From a virus (taxonomy: Duplodnaviria; Heunggongvirae; Uroviricota; Caudoviricetes): a DNA stretch of 22,611 bases. The stretch lies in the IMG/VR virus record IMGVR_UViG_2687453449_000006; one strand, written 5' to 3'. Position 1 is the first letter of the stretch; each line of letters opens with the position of its first letter. The position numbers and the translations under genes were made by a program. A model generated the notes under the pieces. That model saw only the letters and a program-made list of their open reading frames with translations. It did no database searches and was not told the DNA's origin. Positions 535 to 9,011 of the stretch are shown here, one piece after another.

Positions 535-1284
535 TCAGTCAATTGTTTTGTTTATTCCATCTGTGACGCCGATTATTTTCTCAAAATAATGAGATGGCGT
601 GACACCATAATAATCTTTAAATGCACATATGAAATATGAAGTACTGTTATAGCCACATTTCTGGGCTACGACATTGATAGAATAAGAGTTTGAAGTTATG
701 AGTTTTTTTGCATACCTCATCCTAGTATCTCTCAATATTTCAGTAAATGACGTTCCTTCATCCCTTAATCTTTTTTTTATTAAACTTTCACTCGTATAAA
801 TCAATTCCGCAATATCTTTTAAATGCCATTGCCGCTCAATATTAAAACTGATTATTCCAGTAATTTTACAGGTAAATGTATTTATATTTGTTAGTATAAA
901 TGAATTTACACTTTCGCGTTTTTTGAACATGGCAAGTAAGGATATACATAGTCTTTCTTTTAACCAAAGGGAGTGTGAGTCTGCTATTTTAATCCCTTCA
1001 AACAGAGAAAAAACAAGCGATAATGGAGGTTCCTCTTCAGCAATATAGCCATTCTTATCAAGAGTAAATTTGCCAGGCAGCTCATTATTCACGTCGATAA
1101 AAAAGGATAAACATGTTTTCTTATCTATATCAACAATTCTTAGTTTAGAGGGGCATACTGGTAACTCCCTTCTAATTTTGTCGCTTACAATAAACAATGA
1201 ATTTTTTTTGAACGAGATAACTCTCCTGTTTATAATTAAATCAAATGATTGACAGATGAAAACTACGGAGCAAACATAATCCAT
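535..1284 (-). CDS. appY: AraC-family transcriptional regulator AppY (249 aa)
   Basis: 249-aa ORF with a true ATG at 1284; C-terminal AraC-type HTH (..[27 protein letters not shown]..); N-terminus [21 protein letters not shown] matches AppY as recalled; strongly AT-rich coding sequence. Confidence 0.88.
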
Positions 1285-1860
1285 CTTGCACCTATCATAA
1301 AATTAAAACAAGTTGATAGCAGTCAAATAACAACCAATTAAATACACAATCATAATCAGGATGATGTGCATTTATATTTTTATACACAAAATTATAGTTT
1401 GCAAATTTTAATAAATTTCATTTAAGATTAAATTATTATATGTATATTGTTTTTTATTCTAACGTATTTCAAAGTTACATTTTTCAACGCTTACTATACT
1501 TTTTATTAACATAAACTCACTACAACGCACCTGAAACCTCTTGCTATATATATGTCAACCGTTTGAATTTAAAATAAAAAGAGTATCATTTTTACTTGCA
1601 TTTCTTATCAAGTCACATTCAACAACAGTAAAAAAACATTATTAGAACCATTCAATTAACAAAAAACCAACATCCAGCTTGCTTAATTTTTCTTTATTAA
1701 ACGACATTGAAAATCAATTGATAAAATACATCTAAACAACCTTTTGGGGCGCAAAAGCATAACATCAAACAAACAAATAACACACCGAAAAAACTCACAA
1801 TTAATAACCTATGATATACATACTGTTTATTATGGTTGAATAAGCCACTCGATATCTGGT
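1285..1860 (-). promoter_or_regulatory. Long AT-rich upstream/leader region of appY (likely promoter and nucleoid-protein-bound region)
   Basis: About 575 bp of very AT-rich non-coding sequence with no credible ORF, directly upstream of the appY ATG; no specific promoter elements were mapped. Confidence 0.4.
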
Positions 1861-1959
1861 GCTACGGAAGTGTCCACACGGTTTAGCAGCACCCGATACT
1901 TTTTCCAGGCTTCCAGCAACGAGTTTTCTTCCTCCGTTGCATATACAGCTCACCTTTTT

Positions 1960-2253
1960 TCACCCACGATTAACCAACAGCCAGACCAGCAGACACGCCA
2001 CCACCGGCACAGCAAAATCCATCAGGCTTGCCACATCCCATGCACGTGTATCAAAACCGCCCCACCACGGCATATTCATTCGCTTGCCATGCCCGAACAT
2101 TTCGATCCAGCGATATTCTGCCTGGGTGTGTTCACGCGCAATGAAGAACGTACAACCGGCTATCGCCCCGTAAGCCCAGTTCCCGGTAAAAAGACCAATC
2201 AGTAGCTGCGCAGCCACAGCACAAAGCGCATGAAGGAAAGGTGTTATATCCAT
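1960..2253 (-). CDS. Small hydrophobic protein (97 aa), two predicted transmembrane segments; function unknown
   Basis: ATG at 2253 preceded by a strong Shine-Dalgarno (AAGGAGG, reverse complement of 2257-2263) and starting 11 nt after the stop of the upstream ORF; hydrophobic stretches ALCAVAAQLLIGLFTGNWAYGAIAGCTFFIA and LMDFAVPVVACLLVWLLV. Confidence 0.55.
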   Translation of the reverse strand: MDITPFLHALCAVAAQLLIGLFTGNWAYGAIAGCTFFIAREHTQAEYRWIEMFGHGKRMNMPWWGGFDTRAWDVASLMDFAVPVVACLLVWLLVNRG

Positions 2254-2263
2254 TACTCCTCCT

Positions 2264-2968
2264 TTATCCGATATCGCTTCGGGAAACGGATAACAACTTT
2301 AATTCTGACTCAAGTTCATCAACTCTTTCAGTCAGCTTCTGGATATGGTGAATCAGTGGAACAACCAGACGTTCGTACATTACACCTTCGGCAACAAGGC
2401 CATTGCTGGAAATAGCTTCAGGAGCATCATCTTCGTTAGCTGGTCGCCAGTGTACAAACTGAGGGGCAATTTCTCCTACTTCCTCGGCAATCAATCCGTA
2501 GAATCCCCAGTCACGCCTGTCATTTTCGCATTGCGACCTGTACCACACAGGGCGCATCCTGAAAATGAGATCGGCGTGCTCTGAATCTATCGTCTCTACT
2601 GAATGTTTATAGCGAATAGACGATGTTGACCGCAGTACAGACGAAATTGCAGGGTCAGGATTAAGATAAAGGTTTGCCGCCGCTGTAGTCGTGCCCAATC
2701 CCCACATATAAAACGCTTCACGGCCAGTCAACGGGTAAAAATCTCCACCATAACGACCGCTTTCCAGATCGTTCACTTCCAGTTTGTTTTTCAGCTTATT
2801 ATCAACTTCAGTTTTTGTGTATCTGGTGCTGATATCCTGCTTTGCACTGGTCATATCAGTCTGAAGCGTTGATACTTTTCCGTTAATTGAGGAAATATCT
2901 TCCTTAGTTTTACTGACATCTCCCTTTAGCGTGGTGATATCTCCTGGAATTACTGTCGATGTAGCCAT
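2264..2968 (-). CDS. Tail-fiber-like protein (234 aa) with a C-terminal intramolecular-chaperone (peptidase S74-like) domain
   Basis: ATG at 2968 with SD GAGGGAG; C-terminal region SSIRYKHSVETIDSEHADLIFRMRPVWYRS...FYGLIAEEVGEIAPQFVHW...MYERLVVPLIHHIQKLTERVDELESEL resembles the S-D-x-R-x-K ... GLIAQEV ... coiled-coil pattern of endosialidase-chaperone domains (from memory, not searched). Confidence 0.55.
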   Translation of the reverse strand: MATSTVIPGDITTLKGDVSKTKEDISSINGKVSTLQTDMTSAKQDISTRYTKTEVDNKLKNKLEVNDLESGRYGGDFYPLTGREAFYMWGLGTTTAAANLYLNPDPAISSVLRSTSSIRYKHSVETIDSEHADLIFRMRPVWYRSQCENDRRDWGFYGLIAEEVGEIAPQFVHWRPANEDDAPEAISSNGLVAEGVMYERLVVPLIHHIQKLTERVDELESELKLLSVSRSDIG

Positions 2969-2977
2969 TTGTCTCCC

Positions 2978-3259
2978 TCACATCCAGCCACGAAGTTGAT
3001 GCTCAACAACAACCGCGTATTTATCGAATATTGACGATTTTTTTACATCATTAATGATGCGCACGTTTACAAAATATCCGTCTTCCTTAACACATACCGG
3101 TTCGCCATCTTCAGTCAGTTCTCCGGTTTCTTTGTACACGTTACCTATCACGTCAATAAGAATATCATCCTGCATCGACTCGTCATCATAATAGCCAATA
3201 CTCTCCATAAAGGCCGAAAAGTCGGCCCTGTCTGCAAATTTGAGTGTTAAATCTTTCAT
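2978..3259 (-). CDS. Acidic hypothetical protein (93 aa), translationally coupled to stf
   Basis: ATG at 3259-3257 overlaps the stf stop TGA at 3258-3256 (ATGA overlap); SD-like GGGGAGAG upstream; no recognisable family. Confidence 0.5.
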   Translation of the reverse strand: MKDLTLKFADRADFSAFMESIGYYDDESMQDDILIDVIGNVYKETGELTEDGEPVCVKEDGYFVNVRIINDVKKSSIFDKYAVVVEHQLRGWM

Positions 3260-5601
3260 TTAATACTCTCCCCCATTTGCGCATCAGTTAATTCTTTATG
3301 CCAGATACGCAGATTACGGATATGACCAAAAAGATGATACTCCCCATTAGTGCCCTGCCCTCCAATTCGCAATACTGCCCGTGGAACAATTGAAGTCCAT
3401 GTTGTTTTTGCCGCAACAGATAATTCACCATTACATACGGCCTGAACATCTCCATCAGCGCCACAACGGAAGCCTGAAATGATTTTCCTCTGGGTTGTTG
3501 CCACATATTTATTACACCCTCCCATAGAAATAAAAGGAGAACCGGCATCAGAGAAATTATTACCACGGAATCCATGCGTGAACAGACCATTTTCCTGATA
3601 ATCTTTAACATTAAAGATTAATGGTGATTTGCTGGGAGGGATATCCCAGTTTTTATTAACTTCAACAAGAGCACTGAATGGTAATCGGTGAATATTGTTT
3701 CTTACAGGTATTGTCACCATGTCGCTGGAGCGAGTGCCAGGAGCCCCTTCAGTAATGATAAATGACGTCCTGTACGACCCAATCTCCGCCTGAGGCATCG
3801 CAATATCTAACGTAGAGCCATTGGGGATAATACTGATTCCAGGCATCGCCAGGATTTCAAATCTTGAGCTGATTATCATTTCCGCATCTGCAAAAAGAGT
3901 GGCGGTAAACAACCACCATTCACCGACTCTTTCTGCCGTCACCGTCACATTATTTCCATGAACAACATTTCCCGTAACAGGATCCAGAACTGCATCTGAA
4001 TGAAAAACAAACGCACCATTATCAGACATTTTTCCGAACCTTGCACGACACCGGGAATTATCACTTTTCGTCAGACACGATATCGTCGTATAAGAACCTG
4101 CCGGGCAGGTGTAAGCATCATTCGTGTTTACAGCAATTGCCTGATATCCTTGTGCTGTCGGATTTTCATTAATAACAGTTATCCTTCCATAGTTAAACCC
4201 CTTATCACTGTCGAACGACTCAACAGACACACTACCCGTGTTATTCCATGCTTCTGGTGTATTTGAATTTCTGAAATAGTTTGTTCTCTGTCCTTCAATC
4301 AGCAAACCTTCTCGTTCAAATCGCGGTTCGTCAACTTCAGCAACGGTTAATACACCTGATTTATTAATGTATGTTGCACCTGATGCGCGTTTGAAGCTAA
4401 CAACCTTATCGGATGGCATTTTAATAACATCATCACCTACGGTTATTTGCTTATAACCAGGCGAAAAGCCAGCAAGCATATCCAGTGAATCGTTAAACGG
4501 TATCCACACATCAGGCAGTGGCTGTAAGACATATTTATACGGCTCTGCTGCCTGGCTTGCATACTCTCTGGCTGCATCCTCACTTGCTTTAGCTGCTGTC
4601 TGGCTTGCTGCCGATGCTTGCGCCGAGTTCGCCGCTGCAGTCTCGCTTGTCTTTGCATTGGTTTCACTGGTTTTTGCAGCTTTTTGACTGTTTGCTGATG
4701 CAGTGGCAGAAGCAGCCGCCGCACTTGCAGAACCAGCTGCAGCACTCTCGCTTTCGGCTGCTGCATCCTGACTGCTTTTCGCCGCAGTTTCGCTGGCTTT
4801 GGCATTTGTTTCGCTGGTCTTCGCTGCCGTCTGGCTGGACTTTGCGTTAGTTTCGCTCGTCTTCGCTGCTTTCTGGCTGTTAGCCGCAGCAGTTGCTGAT
4901 CCAGCTGCTGCAGTCGCAGAACCGGCTGCCGCGCTCTCGCTTTCGGCTGCTGCATTCTGGCTATTTTTCGCCGCAGTTTCACTGGCTTTGGCATTCGTTT
5001 CGCTGGTTTTCGCTGCCGTCTGGCTGGACTTTGCGTTGGTTTCGCTCGTCTTTGCGGCTGTCTCGCTGTTTTTCGCGTTGGTTTCTGATTTTTTGGCTGC
5101 TGTCGCGGAGTTTGCCGATGCAGTCTGCGAGGACGCTGCCGCCTGTGCGCTGTTAGCTGCATTCGTTTCTGAGGTTTTCGCCGCGTTCTTCGATGATGCC
5201 GCTGCAGTTTCGGATTTCTTTGCCGCCGCTGCGCTCTGAGAGGCGGCTTCGGCGTTGCGTGCCGCTTCTTCCACCATTGCCTCAAAACGACGCAATGCCT
5301 CCGGCATGACATCATCTTCCGTCATGGCACCGAGAAAATCATTCAGCGTACCTGGTCTGGAACCTTCATAGACGGTAATGGTTCCGGCATGTGAAGGCGG
5401 AAAACCTTCAACCAGCAGGGTGACGCTGTACTGGCCATGCTCAACATCCATGCTGTAACGCCCGGCTTCATCCGGATTTTCAGAGGCCACCGTGTTCACC
5501 AGTACCGTGGTGCTGTTACGCTTTGCCTTCAGTTGAATAGTGCAGTTCTGTATTGGTTTTCCCGCACCATCTTTCAGCACACCTGAAATCTGTACTGCCA
5601 T
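3256..5601 (-). CDS. stf: Side tail fiber protein, lambda Stf-like N-terminus, Ala/Ser/Thr-rich repetitive shaft, LamG/lectin-like C-terminal domain
   Basis: N-terminus MAVQISGVLKDGAGKPIQNCTIQLKAKRNSTTV...GRYSMDVEHGQYSV...FPPSHAGTITVYE matches lambda Stf as recalled; true ATG at 5601-5599 with SD GGAGTG (the track's M at 5607 is a GTG). C-terminal ...LRIGGQGTNGEYHLFGHIRNLRIWHKELTDAQM is typical of LamG-like jelly-roll domains. Confidence 0.85.
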   Translation of the reverse strand: MAVQISGVLKDGAGKPIQNCTIQLKAKRNSTTVLVNTVASENPDEAGRYSMDVEHGQYSVTLLVEGFPPSHAGTITVYEGSRPGTLNDFLGAMTEDDVMPEALRRFEAMVEEAARNAEAASQSAAAAKKSETAAASSKNAAKTSETNAANSAQAAASSQTASANSATAAKKSETNAKNSETAAKTSETNAKSSQTAAKTSETNAKASETAAKNSQNAAAESESAAAGSATAAAGSATAAANSQKAAKTSETNAKSSQTAAKTSETNAKASETAAKSSQDAAAESESAAAGSASAAAASATASANSQKAAKTSETNAKTSETAAANSAQASAASQTAAKASEDAAREYASQAAEPYKYVLQPLPDVWIPFNDSLDMLAGFSPGYKQITVGDDVIKMPSDKVVSFKRASGATYINKSGVLTVAEVDEPRFEREGLLIEGQRTNYFRNSNTPEAWNNTGSVSVESFDSDKGFNYGRITVINENPTAQGYQAIAVNTNDAYTCPAGSYTTISCLTKSDNSRCRARFGKMSDNGAFVFHSDAVLDPVTGNVVHGNNVTVTAERVGEWWLFTATLFADAEMIISSRFEILAMPGISIIPNGSTLDIAMPQAEIGSYRTSFIITEGAPGTRSSDMVTIPVRNNIHRLPFSALVEVNKNWDIPPSKSPLIFNVKDYQENGLFTHGFRGNNFSDAGSPFISMGGCNKYVATTQRKIISGFRCGADGDVQAVCNGELSVAAKTTWTSIVPRAVLRIGGQGTNGEYHLFGHIRNLRIWHKELTDAQMGESIK
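4560..5260 (-). repeat. In-frame tandem repeats inside stf (189-bp / 63-codon unit, about 2.5 copies, with 42-bp sub-repeats)
   Basis: The motif ctctcgctttcggctgctgca occurs at 4745 and 4934 (offset 189 bp) and the surrounding ~105 nt are near-identical; protein repeats AAKTSETNAKSSQTAAKTSETNAKASETAAK...AAAESESAAAGSA. Confidence 0.8.
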
Positions 5602-5659
5602 ATTCACTCCACAAATAAAAAAGGCGCCATTTCTGGCGCCCGTATCTGGGTTATAAAAT

Positions 5660-8506
5660 TCAGCTAATCATGATGCCTGCAGTGGCTTTCTTCATCACCA
5701 CAACCAGCAAATCGCTGATACTTGCTGTGGGATACCAGCCATTTACCAGCCATGCCGATACAGAAAATTCCAGTGTCATTACACCACTGCCTGCAGGCAT
5801 ATCAATAACACCCGTATATATCAGCGTATTATCCAGAGCCGTTCGGTTATAAATTTCAGCACCGTTTTTTCGTACTATCAGACGGCATGAGGAGTAGATA
5901 TCAGTATGATCTTGCTCATGTTTAGCGCCACTGAATGCCACCGCCGGAATAACAATTTGCCGGTCAAACGGCTGATCGTCATAAACCCTGACGGTAATGG
6001 TCCCTGATGGCCACCGCTCCGGTGCACGGGAGTCCCGGGGGAAAGCTTTGCCCACTGTTTTAACGAGATCGCCTTCAATCTGGTTCGCGGACAGTTTTCC
6101 CAGAACCCGGCAGTTCTCGTTAATCGTGACGTTGTTGAGCGTCCCGGAGTTCGCATTCACGTTACCGCTAATATCGGCATTTTTCGCCGTCAGCCGCCCG
6201 TCCGGTGTCAGGGAAAATGCCGGAGGATTACCGCCGCTGGTAATGGTGGGAGCCGTCAGATATTTCAGGAACACTTCGTTCATGAATATCTGATCGCCCT
6301 GACCAACAAACATCGGCTTTGTGTTGCCATTCGCAGGATTAATCATCGCAATCCTGTCCGCCGCCAGCAGCACCTGACTCTGCATACCGTCAGGGGTATT
6401 CTCAATACCGGCACCAATACCCGCGATATAAAGGCGTCCGTCCTGCATCTGCTGCAGCTTCACAGCCCACATGCTGTTCAGGTTATTATTTGTATCAACC
6501 TGAACCTTCTGTATCTGCTGGATTGCCGCACTCTGGTCTTCCAGTTTCTTATTGACGGTCTGCGTGATTTCATTACTGACATCCGTGATGGACGTTCTGA
6601 TTTCCGCCAGGTCAGGCGCAAGCTGACCGTTATCAATCTGCGTCCACAACTCCTGAGCCAGATGGGTTTTCCCTATCTCTCCTTTGAAAAAATTCAGATA
6701 GCCGGATGCATCATCACTCGGCTGGCCAACAGCCTCCACGAATGCCGATTTGCCAACGGTGTTCACACTGCGGATGTAAAAATAATAATCATGGCCCGGT
6801 TTGATATTGATACTGGCGGCTATCCAGTACAGCGCCGTGCCAAGATAGCGTGCTGTGGTTTCAACCTGCCTGATATCCGCAATCCGCTTTTCCGAGAACC
6901 AGAACTCAAACTGTACCGTCGGATCATAAACCGCAAGATGCGGCGTGGCGGTTATCTGAAAATACCCCGGTGTCAGCTCAATCTGCGACGGCGCTGCCGG
7001 TGCGGCAATCCGGAACGATACCGACGCCGGCTCGCCCTGCTGCCCCCACGCATTTACTGCCCGGACTGTCAGCCTGTAGTTCCCCAGAGCCAGTTGTGTG
7101 AAGCGGTAAGTGGTTTCCGTCGTCCGGGCCGTGCTGACCAGTCGCTCACGGCCGTCATCCGCTGCCACGGTCAGGCGAAGCAGGAAGCTCACGCCCTTCA
7201 CCACCTTCGGCGTATCCCAGCGGGCCAGCACCTGGTATTCCCCGCTGTCTGCGGTGACTTCTGCGGTCAGGTGCTGCACCGCTGGCGGCGTGACACCATT
7301 TACCGTGCCGCTCTGGTCGCCGTCAAAGTGCGCCCCGTTATCCACGATGGCCTCTTTTTCCGGTACATGCTGCACGGCGGTGATGGCATACGTGCCGTCG
7401 TCGTTCTCACGGATACTCACGCAGCGGAACAGGCGCTGGCGCAACGTCGGCAGCTTCAGCCCCCATACGCTGTATTCAGCAACGCCGTCAGGAACACGGC
7501 TCACTTTCACCTTCACGCCGTCGGTGACGGACTGAACCTCCACGCTGACCGGACTCCCCTGCCCGTCAACCAGGCTTATCAGCGTGGTGCCGGAAGATGG
7601 CAGCGTGATTTCACGGTCGAGCGTCAGCGTCCGGGTCTGGCTGTTTACCGCCAGCACGCGCCCGCCGGTGCGGATACCGGCATAGTCATCATCGCAGATT
7701 TCAATGACATCGCCCGGTACATGGCGAAGCCCTTCGGCACCCACGCTGAAGTCCACGGTCTGCGTTTCCAGCAGCTCCGTTTTAATCAGCCACAGCCCGG
7801 CGCGGTGTGCCTGCCCCCGGCTGGTACAGCCAAAGGCATCCATCTTCGTGACGTTACGACCGTAACGGAGAATGGCCTGCGTATCTTCAACAAGCTCTGT
7901 CGCCGTCTCCCAGCCGTTATTCGGGTCAATCCAGTTCACCTCAACGGCATTATGGCGGTCCTTCAGGGCGCTGAAGCTGTAGCGGAACGGCGCGCCATCA
8001 TCCGGCATCACCACATTACTGCGGTTATAGGTCCACACCTTATCTGATGGTCGGTCCTGCACGAACGTCAGCGTCTGCCCGTTCCATACCGGCATACAGC
8101 GCATCGCCGAGCAGAAATCACTGAGCACATCCCACGCCTTACGCTGCGTGGTCAGGTAGGCATTACAGGTGATGCGCGGCTCCGTGCCGCCAAAACCGTC
8201 CGGCACTGACTGGTCGCAGTACTGGCCGATGACATACAGCGCCCATTTATCCACATCCGCCGCACCAAGACGTTTCCCCATGCCGTAGCGCGGGTGGGTC
8301 AGCATATCCCACAGACACCAGGCCGGGTTGTTGCTGTATGCCGGCTTAAACGTTCCGTCCCAGATACCGCTGTATTGCCGCGTCTGCGGGTTATAGTTCG
8401 ACGGCACCTGCAGAATGCGCCCGCGAAGATGATAATTACGGCTCACCTGCTGGCTGCCGAACTGCTCCGAGTCCACCTGCACGCCGACCAGTGCCGTGTT
8501 CGGGTA
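5660..8506 (-). pseudogene. J: Tail tip / host specificity protein J, N-terminally truncated (C-terminal ~948 codons retained)
   Basis: Translation (..[41 protein letters not shown]... to ...[14 protein letters not shown]...) is collinear with lambda J as recalled. The frame is closed by a stop at 8507-8509 and has no in-frame ATG at its 5' end (first codon in the track is a GTG at 8482). Confidence 0.85.
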
Positions 8507-9011
8507 TCAGTTCATCCAGCGCGGCTGCTTTGTTCATGGCTTTGATGATATCCCGTTTCAGGAAATCAACATGTCGGTTTTCCAGTTCCGGAAAACGCCG
8601 CTGCACCGACAGGGGGATCCCGTCGAGAATACTGGCAATTTCACCTGCGATCCGCGACAGCACGAAAGTACAGAATGCGGTTTCCACCACTTCAGCGGAG
8701 TCTCTGGCATTTTTCAGCTCCTGTGCGTCGGCCTGCGCACGCGTAAGTCGATGGCGTTCGTACTCAATAGTCCCTGGCTGGAGATCTGTCTCGCTGGCCT
8801 GCCGCAGTTCTTCAACTTCCCGGCGCAGCTTTTCGTTCTCAATTTCAGCATCCCTTTCGGCATACCATCTTATAACGGCGGCAGAGTCATAAAGCACCTC
8901 ATTACCCTTGCCACCGCCTCGCAGAACGGGCATTCCCTGTTCCTGCCAGTTCTGAATGGTACGGATACTCGCACCGAAAATGTCAGCCAGCTGCTTTTTG
9001 TTGACTTCCAT
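8436..9011 (-). CDS. nohD: Terminase small subunit Nu1 homolog, C-terminally truncated and fused to 23 out-of-frame codons of J sequence (191 aa)
   Basis: ATG at 9011; residues 1-168 ([46 protein letters not shown]...[14 protein letters not shown]) match lambda Nu1 including the N-terminal winged HTH; after ...CTGATACC (about 8503) the sequence switches to J-derived DNA. Confidence 0.85.

Follow-up and report, generated by a model that had tools for sequence, protein, structure and literature searches.

A probable two-segment side tail fibre module and an adjoining membrane protein gene in the DLP12-locus prophage of an Escherichia coli B-type strain

The stretch of DNA analysed here (IMG/VR virus record IMGVR_UViG_2687453449_000006; 22,611 nucleotides (nt), referred to below as the window) carries three small open reading frames (ORFs) directly downstream of the side tail fibre gene stf, coding for proteins of 93, 234 and 97 amino acids (aa). 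In an earlier note, made from the sequence alone, they were described as one three-gene cassette standing where lambda has tfa and chained to stf by an ATGA overlap and by gaps of 9-11 nt. The chain is confirmed from the sequence: all three ORFs are intact and lie on the minus strand (Table 1), and the stop codon of stf and the start codon of the 93-aa gene share an ATGA, while the gaps measure in fact 9 nt between the 93- and 234-aa genes (GGGAGACAA) and 10 nt between the 234- and 97-aa genes. The latter gap also holds the near-consensus Shine-Dalgarno sequence that had been seen ahead of the 97-aa gene (AGGAGG in AGGAGGAGTA). The 93-aa protein is acidic as claimed, with an isoelectric point of 4.3. 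The lack of resemblance to Tfa likewise holds, none of the three proteins having a match to the Tfa/Caudo_TAP family in Pfam, NCBIfam or PHROGs; Tfa-like sequence is confined to a remnant downstream of the cassette. The exact protein of each ORF is found on about 1000 or more contigs. Among 5426 complete E. coli genomes, the 93- and 234-aa genes occur as a pair in 719 (at least 80 % coverage) and the 97-aa gene in 1900, with a median of two copies. As the exact proteins recur in so many contigs and in hundreds to thousands of genomes, the three genes are real, far beyond chance.

The product of stf begins with the attachment domain PF08400 (E 5.9e-67 in Pfam), matches the tail protein family phrog_1419 and, over residues 436-627, matches the NCBIfam model NF048003, 'phage head spike fiber domain' (66.8 bits against a cut-off of 36). 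Its shaft is Ala/Ser-rich and repetitive, and its C-terminal domain is common to phage 21, ESCO3, IrisVonRoten Gp22 and KarlJaspers Gp37. In alignments with related phages these domains align end to end, from QPLPDVWIPFNDSLDM to FGH.RN.RIWHK.L, and by tblastn the domain is found in 218 phage records at 32-52 % identity over 424 aa; a search of PDB sequences returned nothing meaningful for it. A lectin-like nature is suggested, since the homologous domain of IrisVonRoten Gp22 is called 'galectin-like' by BASEL and since the NCBIfam match is to a head spike fibre model. The shaft contains nested tandem repeats at 4633-5104 (a 189-nt period present 2.3 times, with sub-repeats of 21 and 42 nt), which encode KTSETNAK-type Ala/Ser-rich segments, and shaft length varies among related phages.

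The 93-aa protein belongs to phrog_1361 (E 2.4e-46), a family whose function is not annotated, and it has no Pfam or NCBIfam match and nothing meaningful in a search of PDB sequences. By tblastn, its family is present in 183 phage records, among lambdoid phages, Drexlerviridae, Dhillonvirus, Queuovirinae, T5-like and rV5-like phages, with taxon counts nearly equal to those of the stf C-terminal domain. Between the end of that domain and the start of the gene lie 0-3 nt in 18 of the 18 records listed in both tblastn tables. Phage 21 has stf and a 92-aa gene and lacks the S74 gene discussed below, so that the small protein goes with the stf domain and not with the distal fibre. Judged from such sequence comparisons, the 93-aa protein is probably a dedicated chaperone or adaptor of the stf C-terminal domain. 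Its AlphaFold2 (AF2) model is of low confidence (mean predicted local distance difference test score (pLDDT) of 56.7) and has the order beta-alpha-beta-beta-beta-alpha-beta, and a homologue search with a profile including the divergent 92-aa protein of phage 21 retrieved only the same close relatives and gave no deeper alignment. Coliphage-type stf C-terminal domains with 93-aa genes also occur in eight records labelled 'Campylobacter phage' and in two to four labelled 'Listeria phage'; these carriers are T5-like or rV5-like in genome size and look mislabelled or contaminated.

Regarding the 234-aa protein, the S74-like C-terminus proposed from the sequence is borne out by profile search. Residues 116-172 match Pfam PF13884 (Peptidase_S74) at 27.1 bits against a gathering threshold of 22, covering profile positions 1-57 of 58, and a second match (E 1.6e-7) is to the C-terminal end of 8hqz_d, an L-shaped tail fibre of solved structure, where TSSIRYK is aligned with TSGIEYK. 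Five homologues, the most distant of them 29 % identical, all have Ser116 and Lys121. By these matches, the protein carries a bona fide Peptidase_S74 intramolecular chaperone (IMC) domain. Upstream of it, residues from about 7 to 65 form a coiled coil followed by a short tip, residues 7-59 matching the trimeric coiled coil of the P22 needle gp26 (E 0.005). As a whole, the 234-aa protein aligns with the last 238 positions of phrog_3299 (1385 positions, function not annotated), a profile that also matches the stf shaft, and it can thus be regarded as the equivalent of the distal end of a longer fibre, encoded separately. Its first 24 residues and its IMC are common to fibres of 345-351 aa in 2G7b, Tritos and ESCO3, whose middles differ, and are found as well in IrisVonRoten Gp24 (574 aa) and KarlJaspers Gp35; the consensus of this N-terminal peptide is M.T.T.IP.DI..LK. 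Such shared ends around completely different middles are characteristic of distal fibres built from modules and attached by a docking peptide.

The same order of an stf C-terminal domain, a gene of about 92 codons and an S74 fibre gene is found in the lambdoid phages PhiR49_1, 2G7b and Tritos, in the Nonagvirus ESCO3 (virulent, 9g-like), and in two BASEL phages, the T1-like KarlJaspers (Gp37-36-35) and the T5-like IrisVonRoten (Gp22-23-24). Lateral fibres may consist of one polypeptide or of two or more proteins (PMC8594841), and an AlphaFold-Multimer model joins the distal IMC fibre of IrisVonRoten to a proximal fibre whose C-terminal domain is galectin-like (PMC11990801). From its gene content, the fibre module of the window is thus a mobile and ordinary one, of a kind already modelled, and as a kind it is not undescribed. 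Branched fibres are described in the papers on DT57C LtfA/LtfB, where a small protein of the 93-aa type is not. The literature on lambdoid stf with IMC, on stf chaperones and on exclusion morons yielded nothing specific to the three proteins.

In a working fibre of this type, the end of each Stf trimer would be a lectin-like domain of about 420 residues, which depends on the 93-aa partner or carries it. This partner, translationally coupled to stf, would act as a folding or assembly chaperone or remain in place as an adaptor. The N-terminal 24-residue peptide of the 234-aa protein would dock to the proximal fibre or to its partner, and the coiled coil would trimerise the protein. The S74 IMC would drive folding and would then be cut off at Ser116 by the Ser116/Lys121 dyad. 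By homology, such a cleavage would leave a short distal stub of about 115 residues.

The third gene of the cassette is of another nature. Its 97-aa product is hydrophobic (grand average of hydropathicity (GRAVY) 0.53), and its AF2 model is of high pLDDT (93.7) with three helices at residues 4-23, 26-53 and 74-96, so that the membrane protein recognised in the earlier note is sustained; in the record of phage 21, a 95 %-identical homologue is annotated with two transmembrane domains. On the basis of this model, the 97-aa protein can be described as a conserved three-helix inner-membrane protein. It belongs to phrog_1443 (E 2.8e-58; function not annotated, and no lysis annotation), bears the UniRef name Ybl63 and has no Pfam, NCBIfam or PADLOC family, and a search of PDB sequences returned nothing meaningful; no paper mentioning Ybl63 was found. 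The family comprises 423 clusters at 50 % identity, all of about 100 aa, and in none is the protein joined to a further domain. The protein is 55-65 % identical from E. coli to Aeromonas and Comamonas, and a motif, RE.TQAEYRWIE..G.G.R.NMPWWGGFD, is nearly invariant across alpha-, beta-, gamma- and deltaproteobacteria (in the window REHTQAEYRWIE...G.GKR.NMPWWGGFD). Homologues have Arg/Lys-rich C-terminal tails, which suggests that the C-terminus is cytoplasmic and that the conserved loop faces the periplasm; the window protein itself ends in NRG, without a charged tail. A lipobox ([LVI][ASTVI][GAS]C) is absent, the only early cysteine, C11, being preceded by H-A-L. The invariant motif would probably face the periplasm, and from the inner membrane the protein would target a conserved component of the envelope, which would benefit the lysogen or the infected cell; the leading guess for its role is that it would block the entry of a superinfecting phage.

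The genomic contexts of the 97-aa gene are far more varied than those of the fibre genes. In phage 21 it is present with stf and the 92-aa gene in the absence of the S74 gene, and tblastn also finds it in many other lambdoid records. Homologues follow P2-like fibre or assembly genes in Aeromonas and in the Halomonas phage phiHAP-1, tail fibre or spike genes in Leclercia, Desulfovibrio, Chelativorans and Pantoea, and J in a Comamonas prophage, where small membrane ORFs and an Rz-like spanin come next. In Comamonas nitrativorans, and also in Pigmentiphaga, the homologue lies between a phrog_2889 gene (function not annotated; weak match to the tail protein phrog_5302) and avd, an accessory gene of diversity-generating retroelements (DGRs). 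The phrog_2889 gene is read as an Mtd-like DGR target, which would place the homologue inside a DGR cassette. In P22-like phages the homologue stands after the tailspike gene and before int. In one of these, Gally, it lies behind a strong terminator with a 9-bp stem that follows the tailspike gene, and is preceded by a weak promoter-like site, the counts of such sites not exceeding those of shuffled controls. Outside phages, chromosomal homologues are found in Sphingomonadaceae and other Alphaproteobacteria beside ligA/prmA, pnp or herA. The ligA and pnp contexts are each common to two independent genomes and have no phage genes nearby, and such shared housekeeping contexts suggest vertical inheritance of a cellular gene.

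Two further observations concern the surroundings of this gene. In the P22-like vB_EcoP-611R6, the order is tailspike, an OafA/YrhL-type O-acetylase, a short tail fibre fragment, the 97-aa homologue and integrase, so that the homologue occupies the classical seroconversion slot. O-antigen modification, an idea taken from this position beside an O-acetylase, is unlikely as the role of the protein, which is equally conserved in sphingomonads and with unrelated receptor-binding proteins (RBPs); sphingomonads are not known to have lipopolysaccharide. Beyond the 97-aa gene, the cargo differs between phages (sitABCD in phage 21; a methyltransferase, an alpha/beta hydrolase and ompT in 2G7b and PhiR49_1), and the gene thus marks the border of a variable moron region.

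The window as a whole corresponds to the DLP12-locus prophage of an E. coli B-type strain, with 100 % identity to REL606 and to many other E. coli B genomes, and the cassette stands at the 3' end of the late operon of this lambdoid prophage. Read along the minus strand, a truncated J joined to Nu1 is followed by stf, the 93-, 234- and 97-aa genes, a tfa fragment, appY and the end of an IS1 (Table 1). The prophage is defective, as Nu1 is fused to the N-terminally truncated J and the head genes and most of the tail genes are deleted (fusion region 5660-9011); the copy of the cassette in the window is, for the same reason, unable to build virions. Even so, fibre genes could pass from it to other phages by recombination. 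Temperate phages are reported, from the title of one study (PMC3945230), to acquire DNA from defective prophages. At the identical locus of REL606, the tfa remnant is annotated as 'tail fiber assembly protein, incomplete, missing N-terminus', and its presence suggests that the block from stf to the 97-aa gene replaced an older stf-tfa arrangement by recombination. The view that an alternative fibre-tip or assembly module holds the place of tfa is upheld, with the qualification that a 3' piece of tfa persists just downstream. On the appY side, the window is bounded by an IS1 end (1-331) with the InsA ORF at 1-276. The match to REL606 starts only at position 332, and beyond appY REL606 has ompT/envY; the strain thus differs from REL606 by an IS1-associated rearrangement.

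Table 1. Positions of the fibre module, the 97-aa gene and neighbouring features in the window
Feature	Position (nt unless stated)	Strand	Basis or remark
Nu1, terminase small subunit	8436-9011	-	overlaps start of truncated J
J without N-terminus	5660-8482	-	directly fused to Nu1
stf, 783 aa, proximal side tail fibre	3256-5607	-	PF08400, NF048003, phrog_1419
stf C-terminal domain, about 420 aa	3259-4530	-	begins QPLPDVWIPFNDSLDM, ends FGHIRNLRIWHKELTDAQMGESIK
93-aa ORF	2978-3259	-	intact
234-aa ORF	2264-2968	-	intact
Conserved N-terminal peptide MATSTVIPGDITTLKGDVSKTKED, predicted docking	residues 1-24 of the 234-aa protein		homologue alignment
Ser116...Lys121 codons (SSIRYK), predicted autoproteolytic Ser-Lys dyad	2606-2623	-	alignment with 8hqz_d, homologues
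S74 intramolecular chaperone, residues 116-234	2267-2623	-	PF13884, 8hqz_d
Shine-Dalgarno sequence and spacer AGGAGGAGTA	2254-2263	-	10 nt, AGGAGG, near-consensus, between 234-aa stop and 97-aa start
97-aa ORF	1960-2253	-	intact
tfa 3' remnant (tail fibre assembly)	about 1830-1940	-	between 97-aa gene and appY
appY	535-1284	-	beyond tfa remnant

Taken together, the best explanation of the cassette, to which a probability of roughly 0.62 can be given, is that it consists of a fibre module (the stf C-terminal domain, the 93-aa protein and the S74 fibre protein) and of an independent 97-aa gene, and not of one three-gene system as first proposed. From base composition and distribution, the 97-aa gene is a unit of its own. 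Its GC content (53.4 %) differs from that of the 93-aa gene (40.4 %), the 234-aa gene (45.0 %) and the stf C-terminal domain (42.8 %), a deviation of the kind used as a criterion for morons. It is also absent from the virulent copies of the module examined (ESCO3, KarlJaspers and IrisVonRoten), is more widely distributed and has unrelated RBP neighbours.

Several points weigh against this interpretation. The docking of the 234-aa protein and the activity of the 93-aa protein are both inferred, and the BASEL annotators name the short S74 homologue 'putative lateral tail fiber chaperone' and not a fibre. In the window, no promoter or terminator is predicted around the 97-aa gene and only 10 nt part it from the 234-aa gene, so that, unlike a classical moron, it is tightly coupled to the late operon. 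Its chromosomal homologues in Alphaproteobacteria argue for a cellular function that is not necessarily anti-phage, and fold searches were uninformative. The estimates of the ratio of nonsynonymous to synonymous substitution rates (dN/dS) stem from few substitutions, and two comparisons of the 93-aa protein are near 1.

Among other explanations, the one to be taken most seriously is that the 234-aa protein acts in trans as a chaperone: its S74 domain, standing free, would fold or trimerise Stf without becoming part of the virion. The IMC makes up about half of the protein and only 115 residues precede the cleavage site, the homologues bear names such as 'putative lateral tail fiber chaperone' or 'chaperone of endosialidase' from BASEL and other annotators, and in T1-like phages the short S74 form makes up a stable family (47 records at 80 % coverage or more). 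This role is nonetheless unlikely. The protein opens with the peptide that also heads long distal fibres, including IrisVonRoten Gp24 with its two receptor-binding domains and the fibres of 2G7b, Tritos and ESCO3, and the arrangement of phage 21 indicates that its Stf folds independently of an S74 protein. Moreover, known S74 domains, such as the IMCs of endosialidase and T5 pb1, act in cis. A separately encoded distal fibre segment is therefore preferred for the 234-aa protein. As for the 97-aa protein, it might belong to the fibre module after all, as a membrane-anchored assembly factor or a receptor-masking protein like Cor or Llp, given that its phage genes always come directly after receptor-binding genes and that it is coupled to the 234-aa gene by the short gap. 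Its absence from the three virulent-phage copies, its conservation (55-65 % identity from E. coli to Aeromonas and Comamonas) beside unrelated RBP types of different specificity, the chromosomal copies of sphingomonads, which are not of phage origin by context, the missing lipobox and the differing GC content make this improbable.

A holin-like or lysis-timing role, suggested by three predicted helices in about 100 aa, as in class I holins, and by the one Comamonas prophage where the homologue directly precedes small membrane ORFs and a spanin, is very improbable. In the examples examined, the gene lies at the far end of the late operon after the RBP genes or after the P22-like tailspike, and lambdoid and P22-like phages have their own lysis cassettes elsewhere. 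The C-terminus of the window protein, NRG, lacks a charged tail, no endolysin gene is adjacent in the window, the alphaproteobacterial chromosomal copies have no lysis genes nearby, and phrog_1443 carries no lysis annotation. The state of the prophage itself, devoid of head and most tail genes and with a tfa fragment and an IS1 end flanking the region, could finally be taken to mean that the cassette is inert debris. This is hardly credible. None of the three ORFs is disrupted, and they recur unchanged in many strains; the same genes are found in phages that form plaques or can be induced, with proteins 91-96 % identical, and distant homologues retain both length and motifs; dN/dS estimates, from few substitutions, are mostly 0.15-0.28.

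The fibre module counts among the commonest exchangeable host-range cassettes of coliphages, being found in lambdoid, T1-, T5-, 9g- and rV5-like phages, with defective prophages such as that of the DLP12 locus as reservoirs. The stf C-terminal domain and the 93-aa gene travel together as a unit, with or without a docking distal fibre; this knowledge directly helps the engineering of delivery particles based on lambda and the inference of host range from sequence. The 93-aa family could represent a new class of chaperone or adaptor for lectin-domain lateral fibres. The claim that the cassette is undescribed stands for the 93- and 97-aa proteins, which match no characterised system (with PADLOC, neither of them has a match, and the 234-aa protein has only a sub-threshold CorA-like one, E 0.015), and fails for the fibre module, whose kind is already present in IrisVonRoten and KarlJaspers. 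A bolder proposal can be put forward only tentatively, the odds being rather against it. According to this proposal, Ybl63 is an ancient, uncurated family with a periplasm-facing catalytic or binding motif (TQAEYRWIE...NMPWWGGFD), which temperate phages of several morphotypes have repeatedly captured from cellular genomes and placed behind their receptor-binding genes, and which gives a broad, receptor-independent envelope phenotype; the 93-aa family would, separately, be a new chaperone or adaptor class. Such a phenotype could be, for example, a blocked DNA entry of superinfecting phages or a modified conserved envelope component. About one complete E. coli genome in three has a member of the 97-aa family, and frequently more than one; the family is conserved from Sphingomonas to E. 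coli. If its protein does alter phage susceptibility or the envelope, this would be a very widespread lysogenic-conversion function missed by current catalogues of defence systems. The family is a modest but genuine lead, and nothing points to a categorically new system.

Among the closest known systems is Gp22-23-24 of IrisVonRoten (Bas32, Tequintavirus; PMC11990801), which has the same gene order as the window. Gp22 ends in the same stf-type C-terminal domain (QPLPDVWIPFNDSLDM...FGHIRNFRIWHKELTD), Gp23 (92 aa) is a homologue of the 93-aa protein with 38 % identity, and Gp24 shares the N-terminal peptide (MVTKTVIPTDITKLKN against MATSTVIPGDITTLKG) and also ends in PF13884. In contrast, Gp24 is a T-shaped protein of 574 aa with two receptor-binding domains, whereas the distal protein of the window, at 234 aa, has almost no receptor-binding body; and IrisVonRoten is T5-like and lacks the 97-aa gene, whereas the phage of the window is temperate, lambdoid and defective. 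Another is the locus of KarlJaspers (Bas06, Drexlerviridae), where Gp35 (225 aa) is 61 % identical over its full length to the 234-aa protein, Gp36 is 54 % identical to the 93-aa protein and Gp37 has the same C-terminal domain. This lateral fibre locus is also found in other T1-like phages, namely tunus, tonn, SECphi27 and JK16. These carriers differ in being virulent and without the 97-aa gene, and Gp35 is annotated as a putative chaperone and not as a fibre.

With the IMCs of endosialidase and T5 pb1, the 234-aa protein has in common a Pfam domain above the cut-off, a Ser-x4-Lys dyad and a C-terminal location on a coiled-coil fibre protein, but its carrier protein is very short and its cleavage is predicted. 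The 93-aa gene resembles the second genes of lambda Stf/Tfa, T4 gp37/gp38 and Mu S/U in being small, directly downstream, translationally coupled and strictly co-inherited with the fibre C-terminal domain. Its product, in contrast, has no sequence similarity to Tfa/Caudo_TAP and is half the size of Tfa, and the remnant of tfa lies separately downstream. Regarding the 97-aa gene, the suggestion of an exclusion or receptor-masking gene, as for phi80 cor, is sound as to its typical position, while the likeness to Cor and Llp does not extend to the protein, and exclusion as such is a guess. The 97-aa protein is not a lipoprotein, has no sequence resemblance to the products of T5 llp, phi80/T1 cor, P22 gtrABC, P2 Z/fun or HK97 gp15, stands beside unrelated RBPs and has chromosomal homologues in Alphaproteobacteria, but its gene, like these, encodes a small envelope protein and directly follows the RBP genes, either closing the late operon or preceding int.

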